Shown here piece by piece: positions 1 through 35,957 of a stretch of DNA of 35,957 nucleotides. Origin of the DNA: a virus. Each line of letters starts with the position of its first letter. Position 1 is the stretch's first letter. A program made the translations under genes and the position numbers. A model generated the notes under the pieces. That model was not told where the DNA came from. It ran no database searches and saw only the letters and a list, made by a program, of their open reading frames with translations. The stretch is taken from positions 1 through 35,957 of IMG/VR virus record IMGVR_UViG_3300023223_000133. One strand, given 5' to 3'.

Positions 1-144
1 GGTCACATTAACGGGCAGGGCTACTATTGAAAAGACAGGCGGCGGCTCTGATGTGTTGGAGGTTCGCTTTGCTGTTAATTGGAATGGAACGGTAAGTGAT
101 GGCGGCTTGGAGAAATCAAGAGCGCAAACACAAAACACAACCCC
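1..144. repeat. Terminal direct repeat identical to 35814..35957 (circular-assembly overlap or terminal redundancy)
   Basis: Read directly: ggtcacattaacgggcaggg...caaaacacaacccc is present at both ends of the window, 144/144 identical. Confidence 0.95.
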
Positions 145-271
145 GACAACCGTACCGATAGGCGCACTAACAAAGATAGTTACCGGTGATAATATACGTG
201 TAATATTTAGTAATAATGATGGAGGGTCAAATATAATCGCCTCTATCGCATCCGTGGAGGTTAGCGACTAA
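1..271 (+). CDS. 3' part of the wrap-around tail protein gene that starts at 34810 (424 aa in total when the circle is closed)
   Basis: Position 1 equals 35814. The frame from ATG 34810 stays open to the window end and continues in phase (codons start at position 2) to TAA 269-271. The track ORF 53..271 is only its internal-Met tail. Confidence 0.8.
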   Translation, partial: VTLTGRATIEKTGGGSDVLEVRFAVNWNGTVSDGGLEKSRAQTQNTTPTTVPIGALTKIVTGDNIRVIFSNNDGGSNIIASIASVEVSD

Positions 272-600
272 TGGCTATTAAACAATTAGTAGATAACTTT
301 GTTAACTCACAAGTTGACGCCGCTCAAGTCGCATTCACTGCACCAGCAACAATAGCGGTAACTATAGACTCATTTACAGCGGCTAATAACTCACAGGTTA
401 ACGCTAGCTATAAAGCTTATATAAAAACAAGCACTGGTGTCTTATCCCCTCAAGTGCCGTTTAAGGTCGTGGTATGGGGTGAGAATGATTTAGGTATTGG
501 AATTGTTAACCAAGTAATACCGCCCGGTGGTTCACTACAAGTTGAATCATCAGCGCTAGACTCGTTGTACTTTACAGTATCAGGCAGGGAAATAACCTAG
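271..600 (+). CDS. Hypothetical virion-module protein (109 aa)
   Basis: The ATG overlaps the preceding stop (TAATG). It lies within a co-oriented, tightly packed tail gene block. No family recognised. Confidence 0.6.
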   Translation: MAIKQLVDNFVNSQVDAAQVAFTAPATIAVTIDSFTAANNSQVNASYKAYIKTSTGVLSPQVPFKVVVWGENDLGIGIVNQVIPPGGSLQVESSALDSLYFTVSGREIT

Positions 601-601
601 A

Positions 602-1108
602 GTGTTTATCATTGGATTACCTAGAAGCCGAACAGCGTGGCTATCTGTTTTTATGTCTCAGTCTGGTATTAAGTTTTACCATGAAGCTATTAACGGTTGT
701 AATTCTTTAGCTGAATACGAGGATAAAATAAAAGGTTTAGGTGATTGCACAACAGCCTTTGATTTGCCGAATATAGACGAAGTTACAAGCGGGGCTAAAG
801 TTGTTATAATAGAAAAAAATCAAGATGAATTAAACCGGTGTATTGAATGGAGTGATCAAGAATACTCTATTGACAGCAAAGACATGTTGGTTGAGTTAAA
901 TAGCAAGCTAAAAAATGTTACCGGCTTAAAGGTTAGGCAATCAGAAATAAACGACAGGTTGCAGGATATTTGGGAATACTTAGTTGATATTCCTTGGCAT
1001 GACAAATACAAAGACTTAATTGAGTTCAACATACAAGTTCAATCAACAGCGATAGATGAAGAGGCAGCAAGAAATCTATATGAAAGCATTCAACAAAATT
1101 CACAGTGA
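602..1108 (+). CDS. Hypothetical protein with a possible sulfotransferase-type N-terminal loop (168 aa)
   Basis: GTG start 1 nt after the preceding stop. The N-terminal IIGLPRSRTAWLS resembles the PAPS 5'-phosphosulfate-binding loop (PKxGTTW type) of sulfotransferase-fold enzymes. The rest is not recognised, so the functional call is weak. Confidence 0.5.
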   Translation: MFIIGLPRSRTAWLSVFMSQSGIKFYHEAINGCNSLAEYEDKIKGLGDCTTAFDLPNIDEVTSGAKVVIIEKNQDELNRCIEWSDQEYSIDSKDMLVELNSKLKNVTGLKVRQSEINDRLQDIWEYLVDIPWHDKYKDLIEFNIQVQSTAIDEEAARNLYESIQQNSQ

Positions 1109-1661
1109 TTTAGATATATCATTAGCCAGAAAAGAAATAGCTAGTAATGCTGATTTGTTTGGTGAATTCAACGCTCGTAAAGATGCAGGCCCAGTAATGG
1201 CGCAAATGGATGACATATGGTTACGATACGGCGATCCTTCTGGCATGATTGAAAGCGGTGACTATTCAACACTAGCCGATGAGCACGATTCTATTTGGCT
1301 TAAAGATTTACCTGAATGCAAAAAGTTATGCTTTGAGTTAATGAAGCTTGTTGACGGTGAAAGATTAGGCGGTGTTTTAATCTCTCGACTTCCTCCAGGT
1401 GGTGAGATGTTAGAGCATACCGATGCAGGTTGGCATGCTGACTATTATGATAAATATTATGTACCCATTGAAAACGAAATTGGTTCTGTATTCGGTTTTG
1501 ATGAAGGTGATATTAAACCAAGCCTTGGTGATGTATGGGCATTCGATAACTCATTTAATCACTGGGTTAAAAACGACTCTAAAAGCGAGAGAATAGCTAT
1601 GATTGTTTGTATCAAACAAGAAAAATACACAAGAGGGGGTTTATTATGCCTTGGGCAGTAG
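1056..1661 (+). CDS. Aspartyl/asparaginyl beta-hydroxylase-like 2OG-Fe(II) oxygenase (cupin)
   Basis: LISRLPPGGEMLEHTD ... FDNSFNHWVKNDSKSERIAMIV matches the HxD...H metal triad and the FDdSxxH..N.s...Ri.li signature I associate with Pfam Asp_Arg_Hydrox. The start is ambiguous (ATG 1056 or ATG 1080), and both overlap the upstream gene. Confidence 0.75.
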   Translation: MKRQQEIYMKAFNKIHSDLDISLARKEIASNADLFGEFNARKDAGPVMAQMDDIWLRYGDPSGMIESGDYSTLADEHDSIWLKDLPECKKLCFELMKLVDGERLGGVLISRLPPGGEMLEHTDAGWHADYYDKYYVPIENEIGSVFGFDEGDIKPSLGDVWAFDNSFNHWVKNDSKSERIAMIVCIKQEKYTRGGLLCLGQ

Positions 1662-2323
1662 CAGCAGCAGCAGTCGGCGCAGTGGGCGCTAACGTAGCAG
1701 CAAATAAAGCGGATAAAGCATCAAAGAGAAGTGCAGATGCGGCAGTTGATGCGGCAGATGCGCAGATATTAGCAGGGCAAGAGGCTTCAACACTTTTAGA
1801 CCCGTTTCAGCGTATAGGCAGGCAAGGAATAGTAAGAAGTGGCTTCTTAACTGACCCCGATGCACAGTTTGACTTCTTGCAAAGCAACCCTTTATTCCAG
1901 CAAATCCAAGAACAGAACCAGCAAGTAACTGGTGATGCTCAAGAAGCTTTATTTAAAACGGCAGCGGCTAGAGGTAGATTAAGCGCAGGAGATACGATTC
2001 AGCAGACTGCTAACTTAGGTGAGCAAAGCGCTAGAAACTTATTGTTAGCATCTCAACCGCTTATAGCTGACCAAAAACAATCTATTGGCGACTTATTAAA
2101 CTTCGGTCAAGCAACCGCTGTCAATCAAGGTAACTTACGCACAGGTATTGGTGCAGCACAAGCAGGTGGTATCGTCGGCGCTCAAAACGCATTAAATCAA
2201 GGTACACAGGCAAGTATTAACAACGTAAATTCACAGGCTGCATTACTTAGTGGTATATTAGCTAATCAACAAAAAGTCGCGCCACCTTCTTCAGTTACCG
2301 ATGCAAGAATAGGAATTACATAA
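1646..2323 (+). CDS. Putative ejection/internal virion protein (position of P22 gp7)
   Basis: ATG 1646 follows an AGAGGGGG RBS, whereas the track start 1607 has none. The protein is Ala/Gln-rich with a hydrophobic N-terminus, MPWAVAAAAVGAVGANVAA. It is the first of three coupled genes immediately before the tailspike. Confidence 0.55.
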   Translation: MPWAVAAAAVGAVGANVAANKADKASKRSADAAVDAADAQILAGQEASTLLDPFQRIGRQGIVRSGFLTDPDAQFDFLQSNPLFQQIQEQNQQVTGDAQEALFKTAAARGRLSAGDTIQQTANLGEQSARNLLLASQPLIADQKQSIGDLLNFGQATAVNQGNLRTGIGAAQAGGIVGAQNALNQGTQASINNVNSQAALLSGILANQQKVAPPSSVTDARIGIT

Positions 2324-3513
2324 TGGCCATTGACCCAAGAATATCACTAGCAGGTATCGTACCTCAAACGCAATCAGCACAGACTGTATCTAATATATTT
2401 CAGTCTAACCTGAATAACGCCCAAAATAGACGCGCGAATGAGCAAAACATACAGCAACAAGCAGCCTTACAGCCTTTTCAATTACAACAGGCTCAGCAAA
2501 TCGAGGCAGCAGGAGAGCAGAGCGCAGCATTTGAAGCTGAAAACGCCAATATCAGAAGTTTAGTCGAAGCAGGTGTCCCACTTAAATCATTCTTAGAATC
2601 AGGTGATAATGAAGGGGCTGTTCAATTCCTGCAAAACAGAAGGGCAGAAATTACCGCTCGTGGTGGTGATACTGCTCAAACTGATGGCGCACTAAATCAA
2701 ATACTATCTGGTAATCCTCAGAATGTTTTACAGGGTATTCAAGCCAATGAAACTATTGCACAGCAACGTGGATTGCTTGGTGTATCTCAAATGTCAGTAG
2801 GGCAAAGGGACTTTGAATCAAAGGTTAATATTGTTAAGAATGATCCTAACCTAGAAACGGCAGAGGGAAAGGCAGCAGCTATCGCGTTAGGACTAGAGGC
2901 TAAAGCATCATCAGCAGCGCAAATACAAATAGCAAAAGATCCAGAGCTAACCAAAGCGGTGGCGGAATCTGAGGCCACAATAGCGGGCGCTAAATCCGAA
3001 GCAACTGAAGGCGAAAAGCTTAAGCAGCAACGTAAACATAAGCCAGCCATTATAGCGCTTAGTAAATTAGCTGAAAAAGCAGCGATTGAAAGAGGTGAAG
3101 TGCTAACCGATTTATCTAGAATGGAAGCTACATTGCCTGGGTTGTTAGAGGTAACTTCTGAGCTTAAAGAGTTAGCAACAATAGCAACTAGCACATTGGG
3201 CGGCAAAGCCTATGACGCTATAGTTAAACAAACTGGATTCGGAGCAACTAAAGGATCAACCGCTAGAGCAAAGTTTATAGCTATTATAGACAATCAAGTA
3301 TTGCCACTATTAAAGCCTACTTTCGGCGGTTCATTTACAGTTGGTGAGGGTGACGCTTTACGGGCTACACTTGGCGATCCAGATGCGACTTTGGAAGCAA
3401 AGGTTGAGCAAATAAACGCATTTATAGCACAGAAAGAAAGAGATATAAGAAGCAAGCAAACTCAAGCAGCTTCCAGTGATGAAGAATTCGCGGGATTTAA
3501 GGTGGTTCGATAA
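2323..3513 (+). CDS. Putative ejection/internal virion protein (position of P22 gp20), 396 aa
   Basis: TAATG coupling to the upstream gene. Gln/Ala-rich, low-complexity, coiled-coil-like sequence. Synteny only. Confidence 0.5.
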   Translation: MAIDPRISLAGIVPQTQSAQTVSNIFQSNLNNAQNRRANEQNIQQQAALQPFQLQQAQQIEAAGEQSAAFEAENANIRSLVEAGVPLKSFLESGDNEGAVQFLQNRRAEITARGGDTAQTDGALNQILSGNPQNVLQGIQANETIAQQRGLLGVSQMSVGQRDFESKVNIVKNDPNLETAEGKAAAIALGLEAKASSAAQIQIAKDPELTKAVAESEATIAGAKSEATEGEKLKQQRKHKPAIIALSKLAEKAAIERGEVLTDLSRMEATLPGLLEVTSELKELATIATSTLGGKAYDAIVKQTGFGATKGSTARAKFIAIIDNQVLPLLKPTFGGSFTVGEGDALRATLGDPDATLEAKVEQINAFIAQKERDIRSKQTQAASSDEEFAGFKVVR

Positions 3514-5213
3514 TGCCAGTTATAACTATACAAACACCTAGCGGTGGTACAGTTCAAATTGATGCCCCGGAAGGTGCGACAGATGAGCAGATACTTAGGT
3601 TTGCTAAGTCTCAAGGCTTGTTTGATGACGTGTTAACCAGGTCAGCTCAAAATCCCGATGTGCCAGGTATAGAGGGCGACCCAGCGCAACCACAACCAGA
3701 GCAGCAAGAGGCGCAATCATTTTCCGATCAAGTTCTTGGTGTAGGTGAGGCTTTGTTAACTACTGCAACAGGTGCAACTACCGGCGCTTTAGGTTTTATT
3801 GGTGGAACTGTCGAGGGTGCGGTTAAAGAATTAACTGGTGATATTGAGCGCGGCGAAGGTCAAAAAATAGCACAAGAGCGCGCGGCAGGTTTAACTTTTG
3901 CCCCGAGAACTGAAGCCGGTCAAGATATCGTTCAGGGTATCGGTGATGTTTTAGGTGTGTTACCTCCTGTAATTGGCACTACGCCATTAAATACACTTAG
4001 ACCGCTAGTGACAGGCAAAGCAATCACAGATAGGTTATTACGCAACCCCAGAGCTAAGCGCGCATTGTTAGCCGATGAAATCAGAAAGGGTAATCCTAAC
4101 ATTGAAAACGTCACTAAAGCTTTAGATGCTAGCGGCGAGATAATCACAAGACCGGCAAGCAAGAGAGCGGTTAAAGTTTTAGGCGGCGATCATGTTGCAA
4201 AAGGTACAGTTAGTGTTTTAGAGAATATGAATCCCGCATCAAAAGCACAAGTAAATAAAATGCTAGCCAATATTGAGCGAGGCAGAAGAGAGCCTTTATT
4301 TGGTGATGCTAATAGGCCGTCCGATGTATTAGGTCAATCAGTTTTAAATAGAGCTAAAAAGGTTTCGGAGATAAACCAAAGAGCGGGTAAGGCTATTGGT
4401 AATACTGCGAGATCATTATCAGATATTAATGTTGATATTGGCCCGGTTAATAATCAATTTTTCAATAAACTTAATGAGCTAGGTGTTACTTTTAGTCGCG
4501 CCGATGATGGATGGGTTACCCCTGACTTTTCACGGTCTAAGTTTAACGGTGGTGATAAGCAGATGATGACCGTTTTAGTTAATGATTTACTAGACGGGAC
4601 ACCGGGATTTGAAGTTGCGCACAAATTAAAGAGAACGATACGCGACAATGTTGATTTTGATAAAGGCGGTGTAGGTCAAATAAAAGGCGAATCACAAAAA
4701 ATACTAAAAGACTTATCAAGCGGTATTGATGATGTTTTAGATTCTACCTCACCAAAGTATAAAAAGGCTAATGAGGCATTTGCCAAGACTATCAAGGTTA
4801 AAGAGGATTTTGACAAGCTAGCCGGCAAAGATATTGATATTGGTACGGATTTATCAGCGGAAATATTAGGCGGCAAAGCTATGCGCCTTGACTCTAACGC
4901 AGTATCAAGAACGGCAATTAAAAAGCTATTCCTTGATGCTGACAATGTGCTTGGTGAATTCGGGATTAAATTTAAAGATGATATTCCTAGCTTAATTCAC
5001 ATTACTAGTAAGCTAAATGATGCTTTCAAACTTGCGCCAGGTGGTTCGTTAAAAGGTAATATTATCAGCGGCGGCTTAGATGTTGCAGAAGCGGCAAGCG
5101 GCCCCGTTGGAGCGGCAAGAATTGCAGCCAAAAAACTATCACAAATAAAAGATCCAGATTTTAATAAGAAGCTACGTGCTTTTCGATCACTAACAACAAC
5201 GCAGGATAAATAA
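3513..5213 (+). CDS. Putative ejection/internal virion protein (position of P22 gp16), 566 aa
   Basis: TAATG coupling to the upstream gene. It is a large protein directly upstream of the tailspike. Synteny only. Confidence 0.5.
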   Translation: MPVITIQTPSGGTVQIDAPEGATDEQILRFAKSQGLFDDVLTRSAQNPDVPGIEGDPAQPQPEQQEAQSFSDQVLGVGEALLTTATGATTGALGFIGGTVEGAVKELTGDIERGEGQKIAQERAAGLTFAPRTEAGQDIVQGIGDVLGVLPPVIGTTPLNTLRPLVTGKAITDRLLRNPRAKRALLADEIRKGNPNIENVTKALDASGEIITRPASKRAVKVLGGDHVAKGTVSVLENMNPASKAQVNKMLANIERGRREPLFGDANRPSDVLGQSVLNRAKKVSEINQRAGKAIGNTARSLSDINVDIGPVNNQFFNKLNELGVTFSRADDGWVTPDFSRSKFNGGDKQMMTVLVNDLLDGTPGFEVAHKLKRTIRDNVDFDKGGVGQIKGESQKILKDLSSGIDDVLDSTSPKYKKANEAFAKTIKVKEDFDKLAGKDIDIGTDLSAEILGGKAMRLDSNAVSRTAIKKLFLDADNVLGEFGIKFKDDIPSLIHITSKLNDAFKLAPGGSLKGNIISGGLDVAEAASGPVGAARIAAKKLSQIKDPDFNKKLRAFRSLTTTQDK

Positions 5214-5215
5214 AC

Positions 5216-7111
5216 ATGGCATTTTCACCTATTGCGTTCATCGCACCAAACTATCGAGATTTTAAAAACTACTGGTTAAAAGCTTATCAACCAGGAACTA
5301 CCACCCCTAAAGTTATGGCGCTTGACTCTGAGGGAGTAGTAACCGTTGCTAAATTAGAACTCAACAAAGATGGCTTTATTGAATCAGCAGGCGGGGCAAT
5401 TGTTACCCCTTATATAACTGGTGCTTATGATGCTTGGTTATTCCCTACTGAAGCTGAAGCAGATGCCAATGATACGTCAAACGCTGAAAGGGTTGCTGAT
5501 GATCTTAGCGCTGGATTTATCAATGACTTATCGCAAACCTATGACTTTCCTGATGGTGTTCCAGAGTACAAAGCTTTCTCGTCTGAATTCCCGGTAGGAA
5601 AGCGCATTTACCTCGCTGATAGGGATGCTTATTTTAATGTTATTGCCGGCACAGGCACAGCTAACACGTTTGACATAATCGCCAGCACAGAAGTAGACCA
5701 AAGTATCAGCATGATTATAGGCGATACGCTAAGCATAGATAAACTAGGCGGTAAGTTCGATGCTTCAGATGAAAAGGATGTGGTATCTAGGTTTTTCGAG
5801 CTACTTAACTCAACTGTAAGGCATGGCATTATACAGCCGTTATCAATTGCAACGTCAATATCTCACGCAATAACTAGAAGTGATGTAACCCTTGAATGGT
5901 CAGAGGATGGACACTTAAAAGCATTTGCCGCCATGAATTCACAAATAGTAATAGGTGATGGCTCACAAAGAAAGCAATCTATCCACCTTGTAAACCCTCA
6001 CTTGCTTGGTAATAACCTGGCTAATTTTGGTATTGAAGATGTTGGCACAAGAATATCATCAATTAAAGGCGGTATTTTTCACGACCACCTTGAATACCAC
6101 ATACTTCAAGAACCTACCACGGTAGATTTTAGCGAATTTTTAGAGATAAAAGAGAATCAAGGCAATGATGCTAGAGGCTTCTTTATCCACAAGGCGACAA
6201 CAATAGGCCGCGCTACTGATACTGTACTTGAAGATAATGTTATGTTTAGGGCTACTGATTGGTTTGCCAAAATAACATCAGGACAAAGATTTAAATTTGA
6301 CCGGAATATGATAGGTAGGCAGAGTGCTACCTTCTTAGGTGGAATACTTATAACAGCTAGTGACTTACATACAGGCAATGAAACAGCCGAACATATTATT
6401 AATGACTTGTATGTTGAATCTAATGTAACTTATGGCGCCGGCATTGAAGCGGTGGTTATAGAAAACCAAAGCACCACACGCCCGGTAAACGGCTGTGTTA
6501 TCTCTAATATTAAAGTTGAGCCTGTAACCCTAGTCAAGCAAGTTGGAATTAGAACCCCTGCCGCTGGTGGCTCAAGACAGCACACTATAAAAAGTATGGA
6601 TCCTAAAGGCGGCTTTGCTGACAGTATCAAAATCGGCACAAGCGTAGCATGGACTAGAATAACCGTTGATGGTCAAGATGCTAATGCAGAGGACTTCATA
6701 AACGATGCAGGTAACAACACTGTAATTAATGGCCTTATGTATGAAGCTGCTGGCGCAGGTGGTACACCAACAACAGGCACCGAAGGCGATACAATTGTAA
6801 ATACTTCTGACAATAGTACATGGCTAAAAGTTAGCGGAGGCTATCAAAGGTTGAGTTATGATGAAATAACCTTTAGTGATACTTTTAACGCGCCATCTAT
6901 TGCAGCAGGAGGCACACACACAACCTCTTTTGTTGTTACTGGTGCAGTTGCAAGGGATACGCCTTTAGTGACGTTAGAAACGAATATGATGGGGTTAATG
7001 CTAACTAGTTACACTAGAACCGATGCGTTACATATCATTCTATTTAACCCAACTGTCGGCGCTGTAGATTTAGGATCAACAACGTTACGCGCGGTTGTAA
7101 TGAAAACCTAA
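5216..7111 (+). CDS. Tailspike / tail fibre protein (631 aa)
   Basis: It is the last gene of the virion module. The N-terminus (PNYRDFKNYWLKAYQPGTTTP ... FPTEAEADANDTSNAERVADDL) resembles particle-binding N-domains of podoviral tailspikes. The central region has beta-helix-like repetitive G/N/T-rich strands. An intrinsic terminator follows. Confidence 0.7.
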   Translation: MAFSPIAFIAPNYRDFKNYWLKAYQPGTTTPKVMALDSEGVVTVAKLELNKDGFIESAGGAIVTPYITGAYDAWLFPTEAEADANDTSNAERVADDLSAGFINDLSQTYDFPDGVPEYKAFSSEFPVGKRIYLADRDAYFNVIAGTGTANTFDIIASTEVDQSISMIIGDTLSIDKLGGKFDASDEKDVVSRFFELLNSTVRHGIIQPLSIATSISHAITRSDVTLEWSEDGHLKAFAAMNSQIVIGDGSQRKQSIHLVNPHLLGNNLANFGIEDVGTRISSIKGGIFHDHLEYHILQEPTTVDFSEFLEIKENQGNDARGFFIHKATTIGRATDTVLEDNVMFRATDWFAKITSGQRFKFDRNMIGRQSATFLGGILITASDLHTGNETAEHIINDLYVESNVTYGAGIEAVVIENQSTTRPVNGCVISNIKVEPVTLVKQVGIRTPAAGGSRQHTIKSMDPKGGFADSIKIGTSVAWTRITVDGQDANAEDFINDAGNNTVINGLMYEAAGAGGTPTTGTEGDTIVNTSDNSTWLKVSGGYQRLSYDEITFSDTFNAPSIAAGGTHTTSFVVTGAVARDTPLVTLETNMMGLMLTSYTRTDALHIILFNPTVGAVDLGSTTLRAVVMKT

Positions 7112-9264: not shown

Positions 9265-9570
9265 TCAAGCAGACAGGTTAATTATTTCATCTTCTAGCTT
9301 TTGGCAATACTTCTGCAATGCTATGTGTTCGCTACACCCAATATCATGAGCGTTAAGTTTGAAATGTTTAGCTAGTGCGATAACGTCCCTTTTATAAAGG
9401 TCGATAATTGAACCGCAAAAACCTGAAGATTCAAAATAGTCAGGGTAAGTCAGCTCGACATAATCACCACAATCACTAACTTTATTATCATCTGTAGTAA
9501 ACTTGTGAATTTCAATACCTGCATATTCTGGCGTTATACGACCACTAAATAAATTAACTGATTCTTTCAT
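9265..9570 (-). CDS. Hypothetical protein (101 aa), paralogue of 10234..10458
   Basis: Shares HKF and DVIALAKHFKLNAHDI with the 74-aa protein (DVIALVKHFGLTAEDI). Confidence 0.6.
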   Translation of the reverse strand: MKESVNLFSGRITPEYAGIEIHKFTTDDNKVSDCGDYVELTYPDYFESSGFCGSIIDLYKRDVIALAKHFKLNAHDIGCSEHIALQKYCQKLEDEIINLSA

Positions 9571-9581
9571 GTTATTCTCAC

Positions 9582-9776
9582 TTATTTATAAGGTTTTAAT
9601 TTCTTCTTTACGCGAATAATTGACCACTTAGTAACAAGCTCCTTTGCTCGTTCAATATTCTTCGGATCATTCATAAGCCGCTCAATATCATCTTCATCTT
9701 TACACTTGTATGATATTAATTGTTCAAGCGTTGCCTGTTCAAAATCAGTTAGTGGAAAATCAAAAGATGATTGCAT
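9582..9776 (-). CDS. Hypothetical protein (64 aa)
   Basis: Co-oriented ORF in the tightly packed early operon. No family recognised. Confidence 0.5.
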   Translation of the reverse strand: MQSSFDFPLTDFEQATLEQLISYKCKDEDDIERLMNDPKNIERAKELVTKWSIIRVKKKLKPYK

Positions 9777-9789
9777 TACATTACCCTTA

Positions 9790-10194
9790 CTAGTTATTGA
9801 TGTTATTTAACTTACGACCAGCACGAGTTATTGCGCCTCTTATCTGCCCTAGCTTATTGCCGACAGTACCCATTTCAACCTTTAGCTTTCTGGCATTTAC
9901 ACAGTGTTGACAGCCGTACATGTGCAAGACTTCTTCATAGCTATAACCTTCAGGCCATTGAGCATCACGGTTTAATATATTAACAGCCCGATAAGCCAAG
10001 CCCGGGCAATATTCAATAGCTTTATCAAGTTCATTTAATTTATCGTCACCAGTAAATACCTCACTAAAATCCATATCCTTTTCATTGTGGTTTGATAATT
10101 CAACGCCAATCTTGCGCTTTAAGTCGCGCTTTAAGTCTGAGTAAATAGCGTGTTTTGATAATAGGCTTTCTAACTGATTCATAACATCTCTCAT
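9790..10194 (-). CDS. Hypothetical protein (134 aa)
   Basis: Co-oriented ORF. An alternative start at 10182 (MNQLESL) is possible. No family recognised. Confidence 0.55.
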   Translation of the reverse strand: MRDVMNQLESLLSKHAIYSDLKRDLKRKIGVELSNHNEKDMDFSEVFTGDDKLNELDKAIEYCPGLAYRAVNILNRDAQWPEGYSYEEVLHMYGCQHCVNARKLKVEMGTVGNKLGQIRGAITRAGRKLNNINN

Positions 10195-10911: not shown

Positions 10912-11550
10912 ATGACTAATAAGAAAAAGTCATTTCTGCTACATATTGATAGCTTAGACATTCTTGATGATCTTACAAACGGTCAAGCGGGCGTTCTATT
11001 TAAAGCTATTAAAGCATACCAACATAATGAAGATTTCCCGCTTGATAGCATTGTAAAAGTGGCATTTTCACCATTCAAAAACCAGTTTATTAGGGATGAT
11101 GAAAAATACATTAAAACCTGTGAAAGACGCGCCATTGCTGGCTCTAAAGGTGGTAAGCAAAAGGTAGCAAATGCTAGCAAGTGCAAGCAAGAGTTAGCAA
11201 ACGTAGCAGATAGTAATAATAAGAATAAGAATAAAACAAAGAATAAGAGTGATAATTATAGTAAAGACATATATCAGCAAGTAGCTGATGCATACAATGA
11301 AGTATTCCCACATTTACCTCAAGTGGTGAAAGTTAGCCAGAAAAGAAAGTCTCACATATCAGCAAGCATAACCGAGTTTAAAAAAGATTATGGTTTTGAT
11401 AGCGCAGACAATTGGAAGAATTTATTTTACCATGCTGCAAAAAGCGATTACCTTATGGGGAAAGTAAACGGTTGGTCAATGAACTTTGACTTCGTGATAA
11501 ACAAAGCTAACTTATTAAAAATAATTGAAGGGAATTACGACAATGCTTAA
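10912..11550 (+). CDS. Replisome organiser / replication initiation-associated protein (Phg_2220_C-type C-terminus)
   Basis: The C-terminal WKNLFYHAAKSDYLMGKVNGWSMNFDFVINKANLLKIIEGNY matches the conserved phage C-terminus found in DnaD-like replication proteins. It lies directly upstream of, and overlaps, the DnaB gene. Confidence 0.65.
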   Translation: MTNKKKSFLLHIDSLDILDDLTNGQAGVLFKAIKAYQHNEDFPLDSIVKVAFSPFKNQFIRDDEKYIKTCERRAIAGSKGGKQKVANASKCKQELANVADSNNKNKNKTKNKSDNYSKDIYQQVADAYNEVFPHLPQVVKVSQKRKSHISASITEFKKDYGFDSADNWKNLFYHAAKSDYLMGKVNGWSMNFDFVINKANLLKIIEGNYDNA

Positions 11551-12922
11551 AGAACTACCGAGTAACCTAAATGCTGAAAAGGCGATACTAGGTGCGTTAC
11601 TAACAGACTGTAATAACGACATGTGCCGACAAGCTTTGGATATGATGGATTCATCAGCATTCTTTCTGCAAAGCAATCGCGTAATATTTGACACTATTAA
11701 AAACATGGCTGAAAATAAATTAACTGTTGATCCGATAACCGTAACCGAGAAGCTAAAGACGGATGGCAATGAAAGCATATCAGGCGGTTATTTTTATATA
11801 TCTGAGCTACCAAGGTCAGTAACTAGTTTGGCGCTTACACTGGTTCACGTTAACCTGGTAAACAAAACAGCCACCACAAGAGAGATAATAGCCACAGCTC
11901 AAAAGGCAATCGAACACTCTGAAAACCTAGAACCATCAGAATTAATTGAGATGATCGAGTCTCATTTAAAAACAATAACCTCAAAAGATACCGGCAAAGA
12001 AGCAAGCCACATATCAGACTTTGGTGACGGTTGGGCTGATGACCTAGATGAAAAAACAAGAAGGGAAAGCTCTATAAGCGGATTAGAGACAGGAATCGCC
12101 GAACTCGATGAAAGACTATCGGGTTTTGATTTAGAGGGCTTAATTGTTCTTGCAGGTCGCCCTAGCATGGGTAAAACGCTATTTGCTCAGACAATTCTTG
12201 ATAATGTTGGCGGTTTAGCACAAAAAGACTGTATGTTTTTCTCAATGGAAATGAGTGAGAAACAGGTTTATGAAAGATTCGTATCAAAGGCTTCAGGTGT
12301 TTGCCCTAAGAAAATCAGAAGCGGTAAAGGTTTAAATAATGAAGATTGGGGTAGGCTCACTACAGGCGTTTCTGCTGTAAATAATAGTAAGATTTACGTT
12401 GATACTGATGCAAGGTTATCAGTTGGGCAAATTAGAGCGAGAGTCAGAAGGCAGGTATCTAAAAAAGGATATTTAAGTTTGATTGTTATTGATTACCTTG
12501 GGCTAATGTCAAAACCTAAAGCAGACAGAAATGATATTGCTATTGGCGAGATAACAAGCTCACTAAAAAGCTTAGCTAAAGAAATTAAAACACCAATACT
12601 CTTACTTGTGCAAGGTAGTCGTAGTATGGATAAAGGCGGCAGACCTGTAATGAGTGACCTAAAAGACTCAAGTTCAATTGAAGCTGATGCAGATGTGGTT
12701 TTATTTGTCCATCGTCAAGAGGTTTTAGATCCCGATACTGAGTTAAAAGGGGTGACAGAATTGATTATCGCTAAAGATCGACACAACGATGGTAACGGAA
12801 CTATATACCTATCTAAAATGAATGGCGGCTTTGGTGAGTTAAGCATTCAAGAAGTTGCAGAAATGACGCAACGAGAAGAAGCTAAGAAGATGCCACAGCA
12901 ACGCGGCTACGCAAGGAAATAA
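11543..12922 (+). CDS. dnaB: Replicative DNA helicase DnaB
   Basis: N-terminal NAEKAILGALL, Walker A GRPSMGKT, Walker B LIVIDYLGLM, and SDLKDSSSIEADADVVLFVHR. ATG 11543 follows GAAGGGAA, whereas the track start 11525 is a TTG. Confidence 0.9.
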   Translation: MLKELPSNLNAEKAILGALLTDCNNDMCRQALDMMDSSAFFLQSNRVIFDTIKNMAENKLTVDPITVTEKLKTDGNESISGGYFYISELPRSVTSLALTLVHVNLVNKTATTREIIATAQKAIEHSENLEPSELIEMIESHLKTITSKDTGKEASHISDFGDGWADDLDEKTRRESSISGLETGIAELDERLSGFDLEGLIVLAGRPSMGKTLFAQTILDNVGGLAQKDCMFFSMEMSEKQVYERFVSKASGVCPKKIRSGKGLNNEDWGRLTTGVSAVNNSKIYVDTDARLSVGQIRARVRRQVSKKGYLSLIVIDYLGLMSKPKADRNDIAIGEITSSLKSLAKEIKTPILLLVQGSRSMDKGGRPVMSDLKDSSSIEADADVVLFVHRQEVLDPDTELKGVTELIIAKDRHNDGNGTIYLSKMNGGFGELSIQEVAEMTQREEAKKMPQQRGYARK

Positions 12923-16659: not shown

Positions 16660-16798
16660 TTACCATGATCAATCAGAAAGTTGCCCGGCTGAATGCCCTG
16701 AGTGTTTTTCATCAATGACTGAAGAAGAAGAAAAAGGCTGCAAGTTTAATATTTGTGATAATGATAAATGTAAATATACAGTAGAGATAGGTGAGTAA
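16652..16798 (+). CDS. Small zinc-ribbon protein (48 aa), below the ORF-track cutoff
   Basis: MNNYHDQSESCPAECPECFSS...KGCKFNICDNDKCKYTVEIGE has CxxC-type pairs. It overlaps both neighbouring genes. Confidence 0.45.
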   Translation: MNNYHDQSESCPAECPECFSSMTEEEEKGCKFNICDNDKCKYTVEIGE

Positions 16799-16799
16799 T

Positions 16800-17810
16800 A
16801 TGAGTAATCAACTAGTAACAATTGAAAGTAATATAATGGGTGTTATCGAACAGGCCGGTAAACTGGCTAGTATTCATGATTCAATCGCAATAGACGCAGA
16901 GCAAAACTATGCCATACAGATTTTATATAAAAATAAAATGGCTATTGAGACAGCGCAAAAAAACCCGGTTAGCGTACAGAATGCGATATTAAACCTATCA
17001 AGCATCGGCATTAGTTTAAACCCTGCGCTTAAACACGCCTATTTAGTGCCTAGAGACGGGGCAATCTGTTTAGATATATCCTACATGGGGTTGATGCACT
17101 TAGCGCAAGAGATTGGCTCTATCGAATGGGGGCAAGCAAAGATAGTTTATGCAAATGACACCTATGAAAGCCAAGGCTTAAACATGCAGCCGATACATAA
17201 ATTTAACGCATTCTCTAAAGATAGGGGTGAAAAGGTTGGTGTATATTGTTCAGTAAAATTACCAAGCGGTGATTACTTAACAGAAGAAATGGATGCAGAA
17301 GAAATTGCAGGTGTTCGCAAGACCTCAAAAAGTCAACATTCAGCATATAGTCCTTGGAATACTTTTGAAAAAGAAATGTGGCGAAAGTCAGTAGTAAAGC
17401 GAGCGTCAAAATATTGGCCTAAGTCTAACGCTAACTCAACAGCTAATAGGCTTGATACTGCTATACATGTAATCAACGAGCATGAAGGTCTTGAAGGTGA
17501 AAGAGATATACAGCTTAAAAAGCTTATTGAGCTTTATGAAAGCAACTCTGAGCCACTAGTTTTATGGGGATATATGGAACAATTCAGAGGTGATGATCAA
17601 TTGTCTCAATGGATGTACTCAAATTTCCCTAAAGGACACAAGGGTAAGATTGCCGCATTGTTAAAACAAGGTCGAGAACAGTTTTTTGCCTATAAAGCAA
17701 TATTTGAAGATGGCGAAATAACAGCTATGGATGAGGCTAGGGCTGAACTGTCAGAAATGGAAATGAGAATAATCAATAAATCAATTAAAGAAAGAGCTGA
17801 ATTATGCTGA
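16800..17810 (+). CDS. recT: RecT-family single-strand annealing recombinase with a C-terminal extension
   Basis: NPALKHAYLVPRDGAICLDISYMGLMHLAQ ... KIVYANDTYE ... SPWNTFEKEMWRKSVVKRASKYWP are RecT hallmarks. ATG 16800 (the track start 16791 is a GTG). About 80 residues after the core are unassigned. Confidence 0.85.
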   Translation: MSNQLVTIESNIMGVIEQAGKLASIHDSIAIDAEQNYAIQILYKNKMAIETAQKNPVSVQNAILNLSSIGISLNPALKHAYLVPRDGAICLDISYMGLMHLAQEIGSIEWGQAKIVYANDTYESQGLNMQPIHKFNAFSKDRGEKVGVYCSVKLPSGDYLTEEMDAEEIAGVRKTSKSQHSAYSPWNTFEKEMWRKSVVKRASKYWPKSNANSTANRLDTAIHVINEHEGLEGERDIQLKKLIELYESNSEPLVLWGYMEQFRGDDQLSQWMYSNFPKGHKGKIAALLKQGREQFFAYKAIFEDGEITAMDEARAELSEMEMRIINKSIKERAELC

Positions 17811-22342: not shown

Positions 22343-22807
22343 ATGGCTAAATCAACAACAACACTTAAGAAAGGTGACAACCTACCGGCAAGGGGTAGAT
22401 CCAATAGGACATTAATACTTGAGGTTCTTAGGGAGAAAGGCCATCTAAGCCTTACCAAGAAATCAACAAAGGAGGATGCTGAAAAAGCATTTTTTGATAA
22501 TGTTGCCACTACTGCGTTTAACCTTGAAGATCAAAACAGAAGCATGTGCTTAAAGTTACTCGCCGATAAAGGCTGGGCTAGTGTTAAGCCATCTAGCGAG
22601 ATGATAAACTTCGACTTTGATATTGATGCACCACCTCACATACAGGCGGCACAGGTAATGAAAGCAGCCGCAGAGGGTAGAGTCCCGCCCGATATAGCAA
22701 ACACATTTGTACAGTCAATTAAAGCAATGATTGATATTGAAGAATTTACCAATTTAAAAAAACGCCTTGAAGATATTGAAAAGTCATTAGGCTTAAACCT
22801 TGAGTAG
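22343..22807 (+). CDS. terS: Terminase small subunit (positional call)
   Basis: 154-aa protein immediately upstream of, and overlapping, terL. It has a basic N-terminus with a possible HTH (RTLILEVLREKGHLSL). Confidence 0.55.
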   Translation: MAKSTTTLKKGDNLPARGRSNRTLILEVLREKGHLSLTKKSTKEDAEKAFFDNVATTAFNLEDQNRSMCLKLLADKGWASVKPSSEMINFDFDIDAPPHIQAAQVMKAAAEGRVPPDIANTFVQSIKAMIDIEEFTNLKKRLEDIEKSLGLNLE

Positions 22808-32468: not shown

Positions 32469-33098
32469 ATGGCGTTAGATACTTACGATAATTTATTCAA
32501 GACTATATCTGCAAGGATAGAGCGCGGTACAAGTTTAGACCTTGAGATACCAGATTTTATATTGCTAGCTGAAAGAGATATGCTAGCAAACCCTACCGAG
32601 TCACTAAAGATTAGTGAAGCAGAAACAATTTCAACAGATACAACTAGCACGTTAACTCGAACATTAGCCCTACCAAGCGGCTTTAAGAAGTCGCGTGACT
32701 TCTCTATATCATTCGATAACGGCATTGAAAAACTAACGTATAGAACTCCTGAGCAAATGAACGTTAGAAACGGCACCGGTCGCCCTTGCTTCTTTACCAT
32801 TCAAGGCAATAACATGGCTTTTGATATCCTGCCAGAAGAAGAATGGGTGGTAACCTTTGATTACTTCAAGGACTTCGAGCCACTAACTGTACTAAATCAA
32901 ACAAACATAATTTTAGATAAATACCCAAGCGTATATTTATTTGGTGCACTTCGTCATGCGTTTATGCGAGCACAAGACTTTGAGCAAGGCACTGTTTACG
33001 GGGGCAACTTCTTTAGTGCTATCGAATCAGCTAATCTTTCTGAGCTTGAAAAAAGAAACGGCAACATGCCACAACAAACCGTTGGGTGGTCACCTTAA
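32469..33098 (+). CDS. Head-tail adaptor (position of P22 gp4), 209 aa
   Basis: Synteny only. TAATG coupling to the gp10-like gene. Confidence 0.45.
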   Translation: MALDTYDNLFKTISARIERGTSLDLEIPDFILLAERDMLANPTESLKISEAETISTDTTSTLTRTLALPSGFKKSRDFSISFDNGIEKLTYRTPEQMNVRNGTGRPCFFTIQGNNMAFDILPEEEWVVTFDYFKDFEPLTVLNQTNIILDKYPSVYLFGALRHAFMRAQDFEQGTVYGGNFFSAIESANLSELEKRNGNMPQQTVGWSP

Positions 33099-34516
33099 TG
33101 CCTTTCCAAACTGTACCAATTAACCTGACCGGGCCATCTTATCAAAGTAGGTCTAAACCTTTATCTAGTCAGCAGACTAAAAACTGGTACCCGCAACTAA
33201 GCGACCAAGGCAAAGATCAATATGTATTAATGCCATTCCCTGGCTTAAAGGTTGTGGGTAACGCTGTCGGTATTGATCGCGGCTTTCATCGTATGGCTGA
33301 AATACTTTACCAGGTAAAAGGCTCGTCGCTGTATGAGATAGATAGCCAAGGCAACCACACGTTAAGAGGCACTATTCATGGCAGCGGTCGCGCAATAATC
33401 AGAGATGATGGCATCAATATGTTTATCGTTACTGACTTGAAGGTATGGCAATACTCAACAGATACCCACTCACTAATCGAGGTTAATGATCCTAATATTA
33501 CCGGTGCCAAATCCGTTGACTTTATTAACAATCAATTTCTTTATACTTTCGATAAGTTCACCACTGTTTCAGATGTTGGTAACGGTGCTAGCGCTAGTGG
33601 ATTGAATATCATAGGCGAGGAAACGCTACCCGATGACCTAGTACGTGATTATGTTTTCGATGAGGTTATATATCGCTGTGGTGTTCGTTCTATCGTTGGC
33701 TGGTATAACTCAGGCGTAGGCTCACCACCAATCGAGAAGCTACAAGGCAGATTATTTGCAGTTGGTTTAGCGGCTATAAATTCAATTGCTGAAACTGATG
33801 AAGCATTTTATTGGCTAGGTGATGATCAATCAATATACAGAGCAACAGCAGGCAGAAAGGAAAGAGTGTCAACTGATGCTATATCAAACCAAATAAGCAA
33901 GTTTGAAACGATTAGTGATGCTATTGGTAACGTTATGACATTTGAGGGGCAGAACTTCTACTGCTTAACATTCCCTTTAGAAAATAAAACATTCATTATT
34001 AGTGAAGAGTTAGGCGAAAACGGATGGTTTGAAATATCAAGCGGCACCGCTGATGGCAAGTATCAAGGCTCATCATTTATTAGCGCTTACGGTAAAACCT
34101 TTGTAGCTGATGAGTTTAACGGTAATGTTTACGAGTTAGATTTAGATACTTTCATGAACAACGATGAAACACTTCAGCGAACCAGAGTTACACAAAGCGT
34201 CAACGGTGATTTACTTAACTCCAAAGGTAAACGAGTTCAGATGTCCGAGCTTAAGATTATAATGGAAACTGGTGTTGGTTTAGTTAGTGGTCAAGGTGAT
34301 AACCCTCGTATCATGGTTGAATACTCTGATGACGGTGGTCGCACATGGAGCGCAGGCTCATGGCCTCGTACTGGTAGAATGGGCGAGTTTACATTACAGG
34401 TTTATTTCTACGACTTAGGCTCGTTTTATGATCGCATGTTTAGGATCTCAACAACCGACCCAGTTAGTTACTCGCTATATTCTGCGACTATTGACTTAAG
34501 GCTAGCAGGTAGATAA
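33098..34516 (+). CDS. Tail hub / packaged-DNA stabilisation protein (P22 gp10-like), 472 aa
   Basis: ATG 33098 overlaps the upstream stop (TAATG), and the track start 33086 is a GTG. The length, the N-terminal MPFQTVPINL...SR, the repeated beta-strand-rich body and the C-terminal DDGGRTWS...FRISTTDPVSYSLYSATIDL parallel gp10 as I recall it. Confidence 0.55.
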   Translation: MPFQTVPINLTGPSYQSRSKPLSSQQTKNWYPQLSDQGKDQYVLMPFPGLKVVGNAVGIDRGFHRMAEILYQVKGSSLYEIDSQGNHTLRGTIHGSGRAIIRDDGINMFIVTDLKVWQYSTDTHSLIEVNDPNITGAKSVDFINNQFLYTFDKFTTVSDVGNGASASGLNIIGEETLPDDLVRDYVFDEVIYRCGVRSIVGWYNSGVGSPPIEKLQGRLFAVGLAAINSIAETDEAFYWLGDDQSIYRATAGRKERVSTDAISNQISKFETISDAIGNVMTFEGQNFYCLTFPLENKTFIISEELGENGWFEISSGTADGKYQGSSFISAYGKTFVADEFNGNVYELDLDTFMNNDETLQRTRVTQSVNGDLLNSKGKRVQMSELKIIMETGVGLVSGQGDNPRIMVEYSDDGGRTWSAGSWPRTGRMGEFTLQVYFYDLGSFYDRMFRISTTDPVSYSLYSATIDLRLAGR

Positions 34517-34810
34517 ATGACTAATCCAGTTAACCCGCCACCTCAATTAAGAATACCTAGGGCGTTTTTAAAAGATCCAGAGGTCGCGGCATTTATAGAG
34601 CAACAGAATATTATACTGTTTCAACTATACAGGAAGCTAGGCGGCGTTAACGACCCTGTAGGCGAAATAGGCAACCAAGGCATAAACAGCTTTGCGCCAC
34701 TATTACAGCAAACAATAAAGCAGTTAAATGGTTTACCTAAATTTACATGTGACACAACAGGCTTTACAGCAGATTCCACCGAGTGGACAGCAGACAAGGA
34801 TATAGCATAA
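34517..34810 (+). CDS. Hypothetical tail-module protein (97 aa)
   Basis: It starts directly after the hub gene stop, and TAATG couples it to the next gene. Confidence 0.55.
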   Translation: MTNPVNPPPQLRIPRAFLKDPEVAAFIEQQNIILFQLYRKLGGVNDPVGEIGNQGINSFAPLLQQTIKQLNGLPKFTCDTTGFTADSTEWTADKDIA

Positions 34811-35957
34811 TGGCTCAAGAAATAATCAACGTTGGCGGCGCAAATGAAAAACAAGGTGATACGCCTTTCGTGTTTTGCCCTAAAATAAACAGAAACTTTA
34901 CCGAGTTATTCACCATAAAACAGGCGTGCGTTAGTTACATTTACGAAGAGGCTGATTTTCCAGTGCAGGATGCTACAACTATAACACTACAAGCCGATGC
35001 AGCTTATTGTTTATGTGCCCTAATATCCACAGGAAAGAGGTTTATTGTTGAAGATAGTTCCTACATATGCGGAGTTACTCAAACTGTTCCTATGCTTGAA
35101 TATACCGGCACTGGCGTAATGTTCACATCGACAACAGTATGGACTCTTGAAAATCTTGGTTTTACTTGCCCTAATGGAACGGTTTTCAGTCACACCGGCG
35201 CTGGCCAGTTTATAATAATGAGAAACTCAACCTGTTCCAATTGTTTAAATATTGGCACCATAAACTCAAGCGGTTATTTCTCAACAGGCAGCAGTTTTGT
35301 TAATATCACAGGTGCAGGGTTAACCTTTACCGGTGCTAATAACGGGTTCTTATACGCTACTGGTAACATGATCACCTCATCAGCATCAACCACTATTGTT
35401 GACTTTGGCACTGCTACATTCTTTTTAATGCGGGTATTAGATTCCACATATGCGGGGCCACCTGGCGCGGTTGCATTCTCAGGATTACCGGACGGCGCTA
35501 ATATAAACTCAGGCAATAAAGGTGTATTTGAAGTAAATGATTTACAGTCTGGTGGAATAACTCCTATGGCTGGAATGTCACCATCAGACATTAGAATGGC
35601 GGTTAGATTTTCAGATGGGCTAATGGACTCTCGAAACGCTGCTGATATGTTCATGGTTGGCGGCTCTGAAACAATAACGATCGGAGGCTCTAACGAATGG
35701 AATGAAATCGGAGTACCAAGCGGCGGCGGTGTATCTTGGGATAGCGATATAAGTGACAGGTTTACCATAGGTACTGATGGTGTTTTAACCTACATCGGAG
35801 AGGATGATATAGAGGTCACATTAACGGGCAGGGCTACTATTGAAAAGACAGGCGGCGGCTCTGATGTGTTGGAGGTTCGCTTTGCTGTTAATTGGAATGG
35901 AACGGTAAGTGATGGCGGCTTGGAGAAATCAAGAGCGCAAACACAAAACACAACCCC
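34810..35957 (+). CDS. Tail protein, possible second receptor-binding protein; 5' part of a 424-aa gene that continues at 1..271
   Basis: I read the frame from ATG 34810 codon by codon and found no stop before the window end. The ORF track misses it because it has no in-window stop. Its G/T/S/N-rich repetitive strands suggest a beta-helix-like fold. The minus ORF 35274..35768 is its antisense shadow. Confidence 0.75.
   Translation, partial: MAQEIINVGGANEKQGDTPFVFCPKINRNFTELFTIKQACVSYIYEEADFPVQDATTITLQADAAYCLCALISTGKRFIVEDSSYICGVTQTVPMLEYTGTGVMFTSTTVWTLENLGFTCPNGTVFSHTGAGQFIIMRNSTCSNCLNIGTINSSGYFSTGSSFVNITGAGLTFTGANNGFLYATGNMITSSASTTIVDFGTATFFLMRVLDSTYAGPPGAVAFSGLPDGANINSGNKGVFEVNDLQSGGITPMAGMSPSDIRMAVRFSDGLMDSRNAADMFMVGGSETITIGGSNEWNEIGVPSGGGVSWDSDISDRFTIGTDGVLTYIGEDDIEVTLTGRATIEKTGGGSDVLEVRFAVNWNGTVSDGGLEKSRAQTQNTT
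35814..35957. repeat. Second copy of the 144-bp terminal direct repeat
   Basis: Identical to 1..144. Confidence 0.95.

Follow-up and report, generated by a model that had tools for sequence, protein, structure and literature searches.

Why would two small enzyme-like genes lie inside the virion module of a podophage, between its tail genes and the genes of its DNA ejection proteins, and on what would their products act? The question is raised by IMG/VR virus record IMGVR_UViG_3300023223_000133, whose positions 1 to 35,957, the whole stretch of 35,957 nucleotides (nt) that was analysed, are called the window below. An initial annotation of this DNA had described two overlapping plus-strand genes at this place, and the reading frames and their neighbours are as described there. 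Gene 1 (G1; 602..1108, GTG start) encodes a protein of 168 residues that we assign, as a predicted minimal member, to the sulfotransferase superfamily. Gene 2 (G2; 1080..1661) encodes a predicted Fe(II)/2-oxoglutarate (2OG) dioxygenase of Pfam family PF05118 with 193 residues, and is followed by the gene of the first ejection protein, Ej1 (1646..2323, 225 residues), a member of the P22 gp7 family. The features of the virion module that are given below by their coordinates, from the gp10-like gene to the third ejection gene, lie on the plus strand. The annotation had the pair interrupting a structural block, a description that has to be given up: the pair fills a slot that is conserved in virion modules of this kind, and the set of enzymes in the slot tracks residue 2 of Ej1. 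The comparative data suggest that the slot enzymes covalently modify one or more of the ejection proteins before packaging, an answer that we hold tentatively and at somewhat less than an even chance.

Relatives of G1 are encoded on 206 IMG/VR contigs, and 80 of these loci were fetched. A tail protein, gp10-like or other, nearly always precedes G1, in some loci with one or two small open reading frames (ORFs) in between, and three proteins of ~200, ~400 and ~600 residues are encoded downstream. About 30 of the 80 loci carry G2, always immediately downstream of G1. G2 itself is encoded by 227 viral contigs; among the best 80, G1 lies upstream in about 25 and is missing from about 56, and the position of G2 is the same in both groups. 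G1 is by far the commoner of the two in the slot, and the divergence of G1 and G2 runs in parallel across loci. At many of the G1-less G2 loci the next gene encodes a Cupin_2-like protein of 117-132 residues, with E-values (1e-5 to 9e-3) that lie below the Pfam threshold and are consistent from locus to locus. These proteins have a conserved H-x-H...H pattern, and their genes alone separate that of the hydroxylase from the one for Ej1, for example at 5512-5907 of locus L116 in our set, 5560-5931 of L128, 5582-5968 of L152 and 5588-5986 of L157, and at many other G2 loci. A GNAT acetyltransferase directly follows G2 in Pseudomonas phage PfAn1 and Limnohabitans phage DC33.

In bacterial assemblies, G1 relatives are rare (16 loci in 185,579 species) and occur in prophage-like regions, in the same slot, mostly on phage-like contigs of metagenome-assembled genomes (MAGs). 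Here a G1-like domain is found fused to a C-terminal GNAT domain, in the Azospirillum rugosum genome and in Sphingomonas, Sphingomonadales and Beijerinckiaceae MAGs. The fusion proteins have ~355 residues and lie in the tail/ejection slot (L177 at ~3986-5050 of Azospirillum rugosum NZ_JAGINP010000001, L170, L178 and L180), and their GNAT part is a homolog of the GNATs that PfAn1 (E = 3e-9) and DC33 (E = 6e-7) encode as separate proteins in the slot. Adjacency, overlap and fusion therefore link four enzyme families at one genomic position. One further candidate, a protein of 190 residues encoded upstream of G2 in MW202665, is unrelated to G1. Two G1-G2-ejection modules with identical ORF lengths, ~32.7 kb apart, are present on the 64,750-bp contig IMGVR_UViG_3300026519_000012 (L103, L104), which is probably a head-to-tail dimer assembly of a genome of ~32 kb.

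The hydrophobic N-terminus, rich in Ala and Gly, served to locate the gp7-type protein downstream of the slot in 139 loci, and the proteins were clustered at 30% identity over the protein body without its first 25 residues. Slots that hold G2 but no GNAT are followed by an Ej1 with Pro as its second residue in all 64 distinct N-termini (clusters: 16 of 16), mostly as part of an MPW start. The N-terminus of the window protein, MPWAVAAAAVGAVG, begins MPWAVAAAA and is of this type. At slots with G1 only, residue 2 is Pro in 17 N-termini, Ala in 13 and another residue in 4 (clusters: Pro 11, Ala 8, other 4). When a GNAT is present, 6 of 9 N-termini have Gly at this position (clusters: 4 of 6), compared with 1 of ~97 where there is no GNAT. 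Pro, Ala, Gly, Ser and Val at position 2 allow removal of the initiator Met; nearly all of the residue types seen permit this, and residue 2 would therefore be the mature N-terminus. Since the MPW start is kept both where the reading frames overlap and where Ej1 starts at least 300 nt past G2, it is not explained by a constraint from the overlap. The enzyme set tracks Ej1 residue 2, with the hydroxylase accompanying Pro and the GNAT accompanying Gly; this is a correlation only. Such a pattern is expected if the slot enzymes work on the N-terminal end of Ej1, and it fits the best structural match of G2, which is a free-proline hydroxylase (see below). The hydrophobic N-termini of the MPW, MAW and MG types are of a maturation type different from that of P22 gp7, which is encoded at 9369-10058 of locus L088. 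The N-terminus of the latter, MLYAFTLGRK..., is quite unlike them, and 20 residues are cut off by a host protease (GenBank note).

The genes of the slot are tightly coupled. G1 and G2 of the window overlap by 29 nt (1080..1108), and of 35 distinct junctions of the two genes in other loci, 32 have an overlap of 4-50 nt. The overlap reported in the initial annotation stands, with an extent of probably 29 nt and not the 53 nt that the listed ORF (1056-1661, 201 residues) would give: G2 probably starts at 1080 and not at the alternative ATG at 1056, because most of the 120 homologs listed have 193 residues and begin at the second ATG. G2 and Ej1 in turn overlap by 16 nt (1646..1661), so that the C-terminus of G2, ...LCLGQ, is an out-of-frame reading of ATGCCTTGGGCAGTAG. 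Many G2 homologs share a CLGQ-type tail, and in L163 a cupin encoded in front of the ejection gene ends in the same way. As judged from the reading frames, this ...CLGQ/CLGE(QQQ) tail is an overlap artefact, the +1 frame of the conserved ejection-gene start ATG CCT TGG GC..., and not a functional enzyme motif. No promoter or terminator belonging to the gene pair was found above chance. The tight packing, with overlaps of 29 and 16 nt, supports the annotation's proposal that the pair is expressed together with the virion genes. A signature of horizontal transfer was also looked for and rejected, as the G+C content of the pair (0.35-0.40) is only mildly below that of the flanks and not distinctive.

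What kind of protein is G1? It begins MFIIGLPRSRTAW, and its residues 6-13, LPRSRTAW (617..640), are a putative variant of the 5'-phosphosulfate-binding loop PKSGTTW/PRSGTTW of sulfotransferases. We aligned 121 diverse relatives with 20-53% identity to the window protein and a mean column identity of 23%. The loop G-L-P-R-S-R-T-A-W is conserved at 76-100% per position in this set, Trp13 and His27 are invariant, and Glu28 is retained in 82%, with mostly Asp otherwise; the pair His27-Glu28 (680..685) is a candidate catalytic base. The family consensus goes on with ...VIIxRxxxxVxxSL, i.e. R-x7-S, with which Lys72...Cys80 of the window protein (815..841) aligns. At these two columns Arg is present in 84% and Ser in 78% of the family, and the clade of the window has Lys and Cys. 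The loop and the R-x7-S element would correspond to two elements of sulfotransferases, the PKSGTTW loop for the 5'-phosphosulfate and the RxxxxxxxS motif for the 3'-phosphate. In an AlphaFold2 model of high confidence (predicted local distance difference test score, pLDDT, of 91.9), PRSRTAW is placed between the strand of residues 2-4 and the helix of residues 11-19, with Arg in place of the canonical Gly and Ala in place of the second Thr.

Comparison of the G1 model with the PDB returned the P-loop kinase/sulfotransferase fold with weak and mixed matches (E-values of at least 1.7e-3, template modelling (TM) scores of ~0.5), which comprise shikimate kinase, Fap7, SULT2A1, SULT1A1, Stf0 and Teg12. 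In BFVD, the two best matches are 'Sulfotransferase family' proteins, A0A6J5NPC3 and A0A858WNC0 of Xanthomonas phage FoX4, with E-values of 3.8e-6 (TM 0.63/0.67) and 1.3e-4. Searched alone, the window protein matches no sulfotransferase family in Pfam even at E ≤ 10, its Pfam and NCBIfam matches being noise. G1 profiles searched against PDB sequences gave no significant match, the best being the sulfotransferase 5tiz (E = 0.017) over the Lys72...Cys80 segment. Over the 121 relatives, Pfam assigns Sulfotransfer_3 to 60, Sulfotransfer_4 to 28 and Sulfotransfer_1 to 11, mostly weakly and with a best E-value of 5.5e-10, and finds in them no kinase family and no other recurrent family. A prophage protein of 325 residues from a Verrucomicrobiae assembly (L174) has the LPRSRTAW loop, scores above the gathering threshold for Sulfotransfer_3 (PF13469; 50.1 versus 27 bits) and aligns with the profile of G1 (99.2%, E = 1.3e-19). 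The likeness of GLPRSRTAW to the loop that binds 3'-phosphoadenosine-5'-phosphosulfate (PAPS), which the initial annotation had pointed out, is borne out by these relatives and by the BFVD matches.

Among PHROGs, G1 matches only phrog_10855 (E = 6.9e-10), which is labelled 'hydrolase', a label that appears unfounded. This is the closest named phage family; its core is the G1 homolog XBC24059 of Pseudomonas phage BL5, itself annotated 'hydrolase', which resembles G1 in length, motifs and the invariant His. The BL5 protein differs from G1 in having the canonical loop PRSGTTW; it also has R-x7-S, and matches the G1 profile at 99.5%. Its gene (L089, 7001-7540; PP791527) is the sole cultured-phage homolog found and sits in a DNA-metabolism region, between the genes of endonuclease V and ribonucleotide reductase. 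A tBLASTn search with G1 and the family consensus gave no matches in 50,697 phage records, and only a more distant member retrieved BL5.

G1 resembles known sulfotransferases (Pfam Sulfotransfer_3, _1 and _4) in its N-terminal strand-loop-helix with a PKSGTTW-like loop, and in a strand and then a basic-x7-Ser/Cys element. It differs from them in being about half their usual size and in lacking their C-terminal region, which binds adenine and the 3'-phosphate. A GxxGxxK-type segment is the C-terminal PAPS-binding motif of sulfotransferases, and G1 ends at residue 168 without one. We also considered whether G1 is a P-loop nucleotide or shikimate kinase and rejected this, as GLPRSRTA has no Walker A sequence GxxxxGK[S/T] and no kinase family of Pfam appears in the relatives. 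By fold and homology, G1 is a miniature and divergent member of the sulfotransferase superfamily. It is a truncated variant, with PAPS use and catalysis as candidate properties. Its family is real, very large and almost exclusively viral: in addition to 94 close relatives, a profile search returned 2,260 clusters at 50% identity, 1,192 of them with E ≤ 1e-10, and the best 150 of the 2,260 are mostly stand-alone proteins of 150-190 residues. With at least 2,260 such clusters at about half the size of a sulfotransferase, the family may inform on the minimal requirements of the fold.

The assignment of G2 is more straightforward. Its score against PF05118 (Asp_Arg_Hydrox) is 33.5 bits (E = 4.6e-8; gathering threshold 22.6), 302 relatives were found, and nearly all of the homologs listed had been assigned to this family beforehand. 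In an alignment of 40 sequences with 59-83% identity to the window protein (numbering of the 193-residue form), the iron triad is invariant. It consists of His113-x-Asp115 in H-T-D (1416..1424) and, as the distal ligand, His161 (1560..1562) within FDNSFNHWVKN. Arg171 (1590..1592) in RIAMIV is likewise invariant and, by the usual position in 2OG oxygenases, is the candidate ligand of the 2OG C5-carboxylate. The HxD...H and FDNSFNHWVKN...RIAMIV signature read by the initial annotation is in place residue by residue, and its family assignment agrees with both the profile score and the predicted structure. The AlphaFold2 model (pLDDT 90.1) is a double-stranded β-helix with at least eight strands, and a Foldseek search of the PDB returned 431 matches at E ≤ 1e-3, led by 2OG hydroxylases. 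The best match is L-proline cis-4-hydroxylase (4p7w; E = 4e-9, TM 0.65), and others are a nucleoside-antibiotic hydroxylase (7v4f; E = 1.7e-8), AspH (6yyu and 5apa; 8.7e-7), proline 3-hydroxylase (1e5r), and bacterial and viral prolyl hydroxylases, including vCPH (5c5t). When the sequence of G2 was searched against solved structures, none was recognisably related (best E = 0.085). By profile and predicted fold, we assign G2 as a bona fide PF05118 Fe(II)/2OG hydroxylase.

The fold of G2 gives no substrate class. PF05118 takes in protein Asp/Asn hydroxylases, LpxO and free-proline hydroxylases, and G2 resembles its members (human AspH, LpxO, the L-proline cis-4- and 3-hydroxylases) in family score, β-helix fold, metal ligands and Arg. 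An LpxO-type function is not supported: G2 reaches 17.4 bits against a cutoff of 500 for NCBIfam NF033391, and it has no membrane segment (maximum 19-residue hydropathy 1.0), unlike LpxO; G1 has none either. Nor does G2 have the architecture of AspH. The 193 residues of G2 comprise the catalytic domain and a short helical N-terminal part, with no match to the TPR domain of AspH in Pfam. AspH binds iron via two His only, in contrast to the canonical HxD...H site of G2. PBCV-1 prolyl 4-hydroxylase, vCPH, is likewise a virus-encoded 2OG oxygenase, one that hydroxylates protein residues; it differs from G2 in its 2OG subfamily, its eukaryotic host and its proline-rich repeat targets.

How might such enzymes act in the slot? 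G1 and G2 would be soluble cytoplasmic enzymes of the late virion operon, translationally coupled to one another and to the Ej1 gene. They would act in the infected cell, ahead of packaging into the procapsid. Their target would most likely be Ej1, the ejection protein that inserts into the membrane, which they would modify at its N-terminal end or close to it. G2 would add a hydroxyl group, possibly on the Pro exposed by Met removal, and G1 would add a sulfuryl or a related or other group to the same protein, the purpose being to tune packaging, stability or membrane insertion. The loss of 20 residues from P22 gp7 (GenBank note) is a precedent for N-terminal maturation in the Ej1 class. The initial annotation had offered two kinds of role, modification of a tail or ejection protein and late modification of the host envelope; of these, the comparative sequence data lean towards modification of an ejection protein. 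A wider proposal, namely that podophages with P22-type modules carry an unrecognised and widespread toolkit (minimal sulfotransferase-like protein, 2OG hydroxylase, cupin and GNAT) that is dedicated to the N-terminus of the ejection protein and has its repertoire matched to the exposed residue, we regard as doubtful.

Several observations weigh against a modification of the ejection protein. The G2-positive and G2-negative loci were fetched with different patterns, and clustering at 30% identity is a crude control for kinship; the covariation may come from shared ancestry and sampling. Pro2 is also common without G2, with 18 of 33 G2-negative N-termini in a first count and 17 of 34 for G1 alone once the slots with GNAT were split off, and the close relatives L015 and L016 lack G2 yet keep MPW. 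DC33 and PfAn1, on the other hand, have G2 but an Ej1 that starts with MG or MV. The G1 of the window departs from sulfotransferase motifs in its loop (Gly to Arg), in having Lys72 and Cys80 for Arg and Ser, and in its missing C-terminal PAPS part, and it may work with a different donor or have no catalytic activity. Lipids and free amino acids are likewise substrates of enzymes in PF05118, and the G1 homolog of BL5 is placed among DNA-metabolism genes, outside the virion module.

Some of these points are shared by a different account, to which we give a distinct minority chance: the genes may be accessory 'moron' or auxiliary metabolic genes that act late on a host molecule, such as a lipid A or lipopolysaccharide precursor, an envelope glycan, or a small metabolite (proline or a polyamine, for instance). 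Superinfection might thereby be blocked, or progeny kept from re-adsorbing to debris, and the locus would then hold an ordinary accessory gene pair. The substrates known for LpxO and the free-proline hydroxylases of PF05118, the weak LpxO match of G2 and its best structural matches, the small-molecule hydroxylases 4p7w and 7v4f, all agree with this, and cupins, GNATs and sulfotransferases are typical sugar-modifying classes. G2 is accessory and dispensable, because close relatives without it exist; the BL5 homolog and the slightly lower G+C content of the pair point the same way, and PF05118 genes have been treated as metabolic in papers on marine and freshwater phages (PMC7029224, PMC12195039). 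An LpxO score of 17 bits where 500 are needed and the lack of a membrane segment in G2 speak against the lipid variant of this account. More generally, the strict place beside the ejection gene in very divergent phages and the overlapping frames would be unusual for mobile cargo, and an accessory role leaves unaccounted for the covariation of the Ej1 N-terminus with the enzyme set, the G1-GNAT fusion and the parallel divergence of G1 and G2.

The same slot is occupied in P22 by gene 14 (DUF2824, phrog_651), a small late protein of 151 residues encoded between the tail hub/needle genes and gene 7. As gene 14 is annotated as a 'virion stability factor' in a 'head morphogenesis' PHROG, G1, and possibly G2, might be non-catalytic assembly or stability factors, chaperones of the ejection proteins. 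This would apply mainly to G1, which is much more widespread in the slot than G2 and, in the window, strays from the sulfotransferase motifs without a C-terminal PAPS part. We consider it unlikely, since the near-invariant PRSRTxW loop and His27 over 121 divergent sequences point to a ligand-binding or catalytic site, G2 retains all of its catalytic residues, and the fusion of G1 to a GNAT that keeps its own motifs suggests chemistry over scaffolding. Nor is G1 a homolog of P22 gp14 (hhalign probability 0.1%; PHROGs 10855 and 651, respectively), which is a positional analogue only. Packaging of G1 and G2 and their ejection with the DNA, as early effectors against defences or on the envelope during entry into the next host, appears quite improbable: their genes adjoin genes whose products are known to be taken up into the virion and ejected, and both proteins are small, but the channel passes unfolded proteins, so that an Fe/2OG enzyme would have to refold and regain its cofactors, no packaging signal was identified in them, and the gene 14 protein of the P22 slot is annotated merely as a stability factor. 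Very improbable indeed is a pair for DNA or nucleotide modification, in which a base or nucleotide hydroxylated by G2 would have its new hydroxyl group activated or decorated by G1, acting as kinase or sulfotransferase, as in phage DNA hypermodification. The match of G2 to the nucleoside-antibiotic hydroxylase 7v4f (1.7e-8) is offset by its place in PF05118, outside the TET/JBP and AlkB families, and the kinship of the G1 fold with small nucleotide kinases by the missing Walker A lysine and the absence of kinase families of Pfam from the G1 family. The BL5 homolog does lie between endonuclease V and ribonucleotide reductase genes, whereas the genes of the window belong to a late virion operon, away from the replication module.

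In podophage infection, nothing is understood less well than the ejection proteins: the capsid has to hold them in an unfolded or compact state, and after passage through the portal they must build up a channel again across the envelope. If the slot enzymes do modify them, a conserved enzyme set would tailor ejection proteins as a new layer in phage genome delivery. Mass shifts on a defined N-terminal peptide would then give a handle on the packaging, stabilisation and membrane targeting of these proteins, and many genes of environmental phages that are labelled 'auxiliary metabolic genes', 'hydrolase' or 'hypothetical' would have to be reassigned. Hydroxylation is not known for any phage ejection protein, and we know of no modification of ejection proteins other than proteolysis. 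In the literature searched, no covalent modification of an ejection protein was reported besides the proteolysis of P22 gp7. Within the limited literature searched, no account was found of G1 and G2 as a pair, of their conserved slot, of a fusion between G1 and GNAT or of a link to the ejection-protein N-terminus, and nothing usable was found on a phage sulfotransferase near ejection genes or on the function of P22 gene 14. The single components have been seen before. A PF05118 homolog is listed as an auxiliary gene in the DC33 paper (PMC12195039), a PF05118 gene is core to pelagimyophages (PMC7029224), the MW202665 record already labels its G2 homolog as PF05118-type, and some small phage proteins bear automatic 'Sulfotransferase family' names. 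The enzymes are new members of known superfamilies; what is new is the slot arrangement, the partners and the tracking of residue 2.

The module around the pair follows the P22 gene order gp10 - gp26 - gp14 - gp7 - gp20 - gp16, with G1 and G2 at the place of gene 14. The idea that P22 gp14 is itself a GNAT, like the slot acetyltransferases, was not supported and was dropped. The upstream border of the module is formed by a P22 gp10-like tail hub or head closure protein 'Hc3' (33086..34516; phrog_578, E = 2e-73), P22 gp10 being in the same PHROG. It is followed by a tail-module ORF of ~481 residues, the first part of which (34783..35957) reads on in frame into 2..271, its C-terminal part; this continuity identifies the window as a circularly permuted or complete genome. 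This ORF has no PHROG match, and close relatives have an ORF of 438-477 residues at its place. Directly upstream of G1 lies an ORF of 109 residues (271..600), also present in the close relative L009, for which no Pfam or PHROG match was found.

Downstream of the pair, Ej1 matches phrog_598 ('DNA ejection'; E = 3.7e-9), to which P22 gp7 also belongs (E = 2e-95). The second and third ejection-type proteins, of 396 residues (2323..3513) and 566 residues (3513..5213), correspond in position and size to the P22 gp20 and gp16 classes, respectively; relatives of the third recur at the same place in related loci, and it is followed by a protein of 631 residues. No Pfam domain was found in the second protein, whose C-terminal half (residues 191-385) matches phrog_26675, labelled 'endolysin' (E = 2e-25), so that lytic activity is only a candidate property.

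No phage record matches the window at the DNA level, and the nearest cultured phages have a portal identity of only 25-27%; the virus belongs to an uncultured lineage. With the large terminase (22800-24503), portal (24505-26607), scaffold and major capsid protein among its structural genes, the window has the appearance of a podophage genome that is complete and permuted. No match to a DNA or RNA polymerase was seen among the ORFs scanned against PHROGs, which leave many ORFs of the window unscanned. The replication module encodes an O-like initiator, a DnaB-like helicase and RecT (10912-12922 and 16791-17810), and the replication strategy looks lambdoid or P22-style in an otherwise novel podophage.

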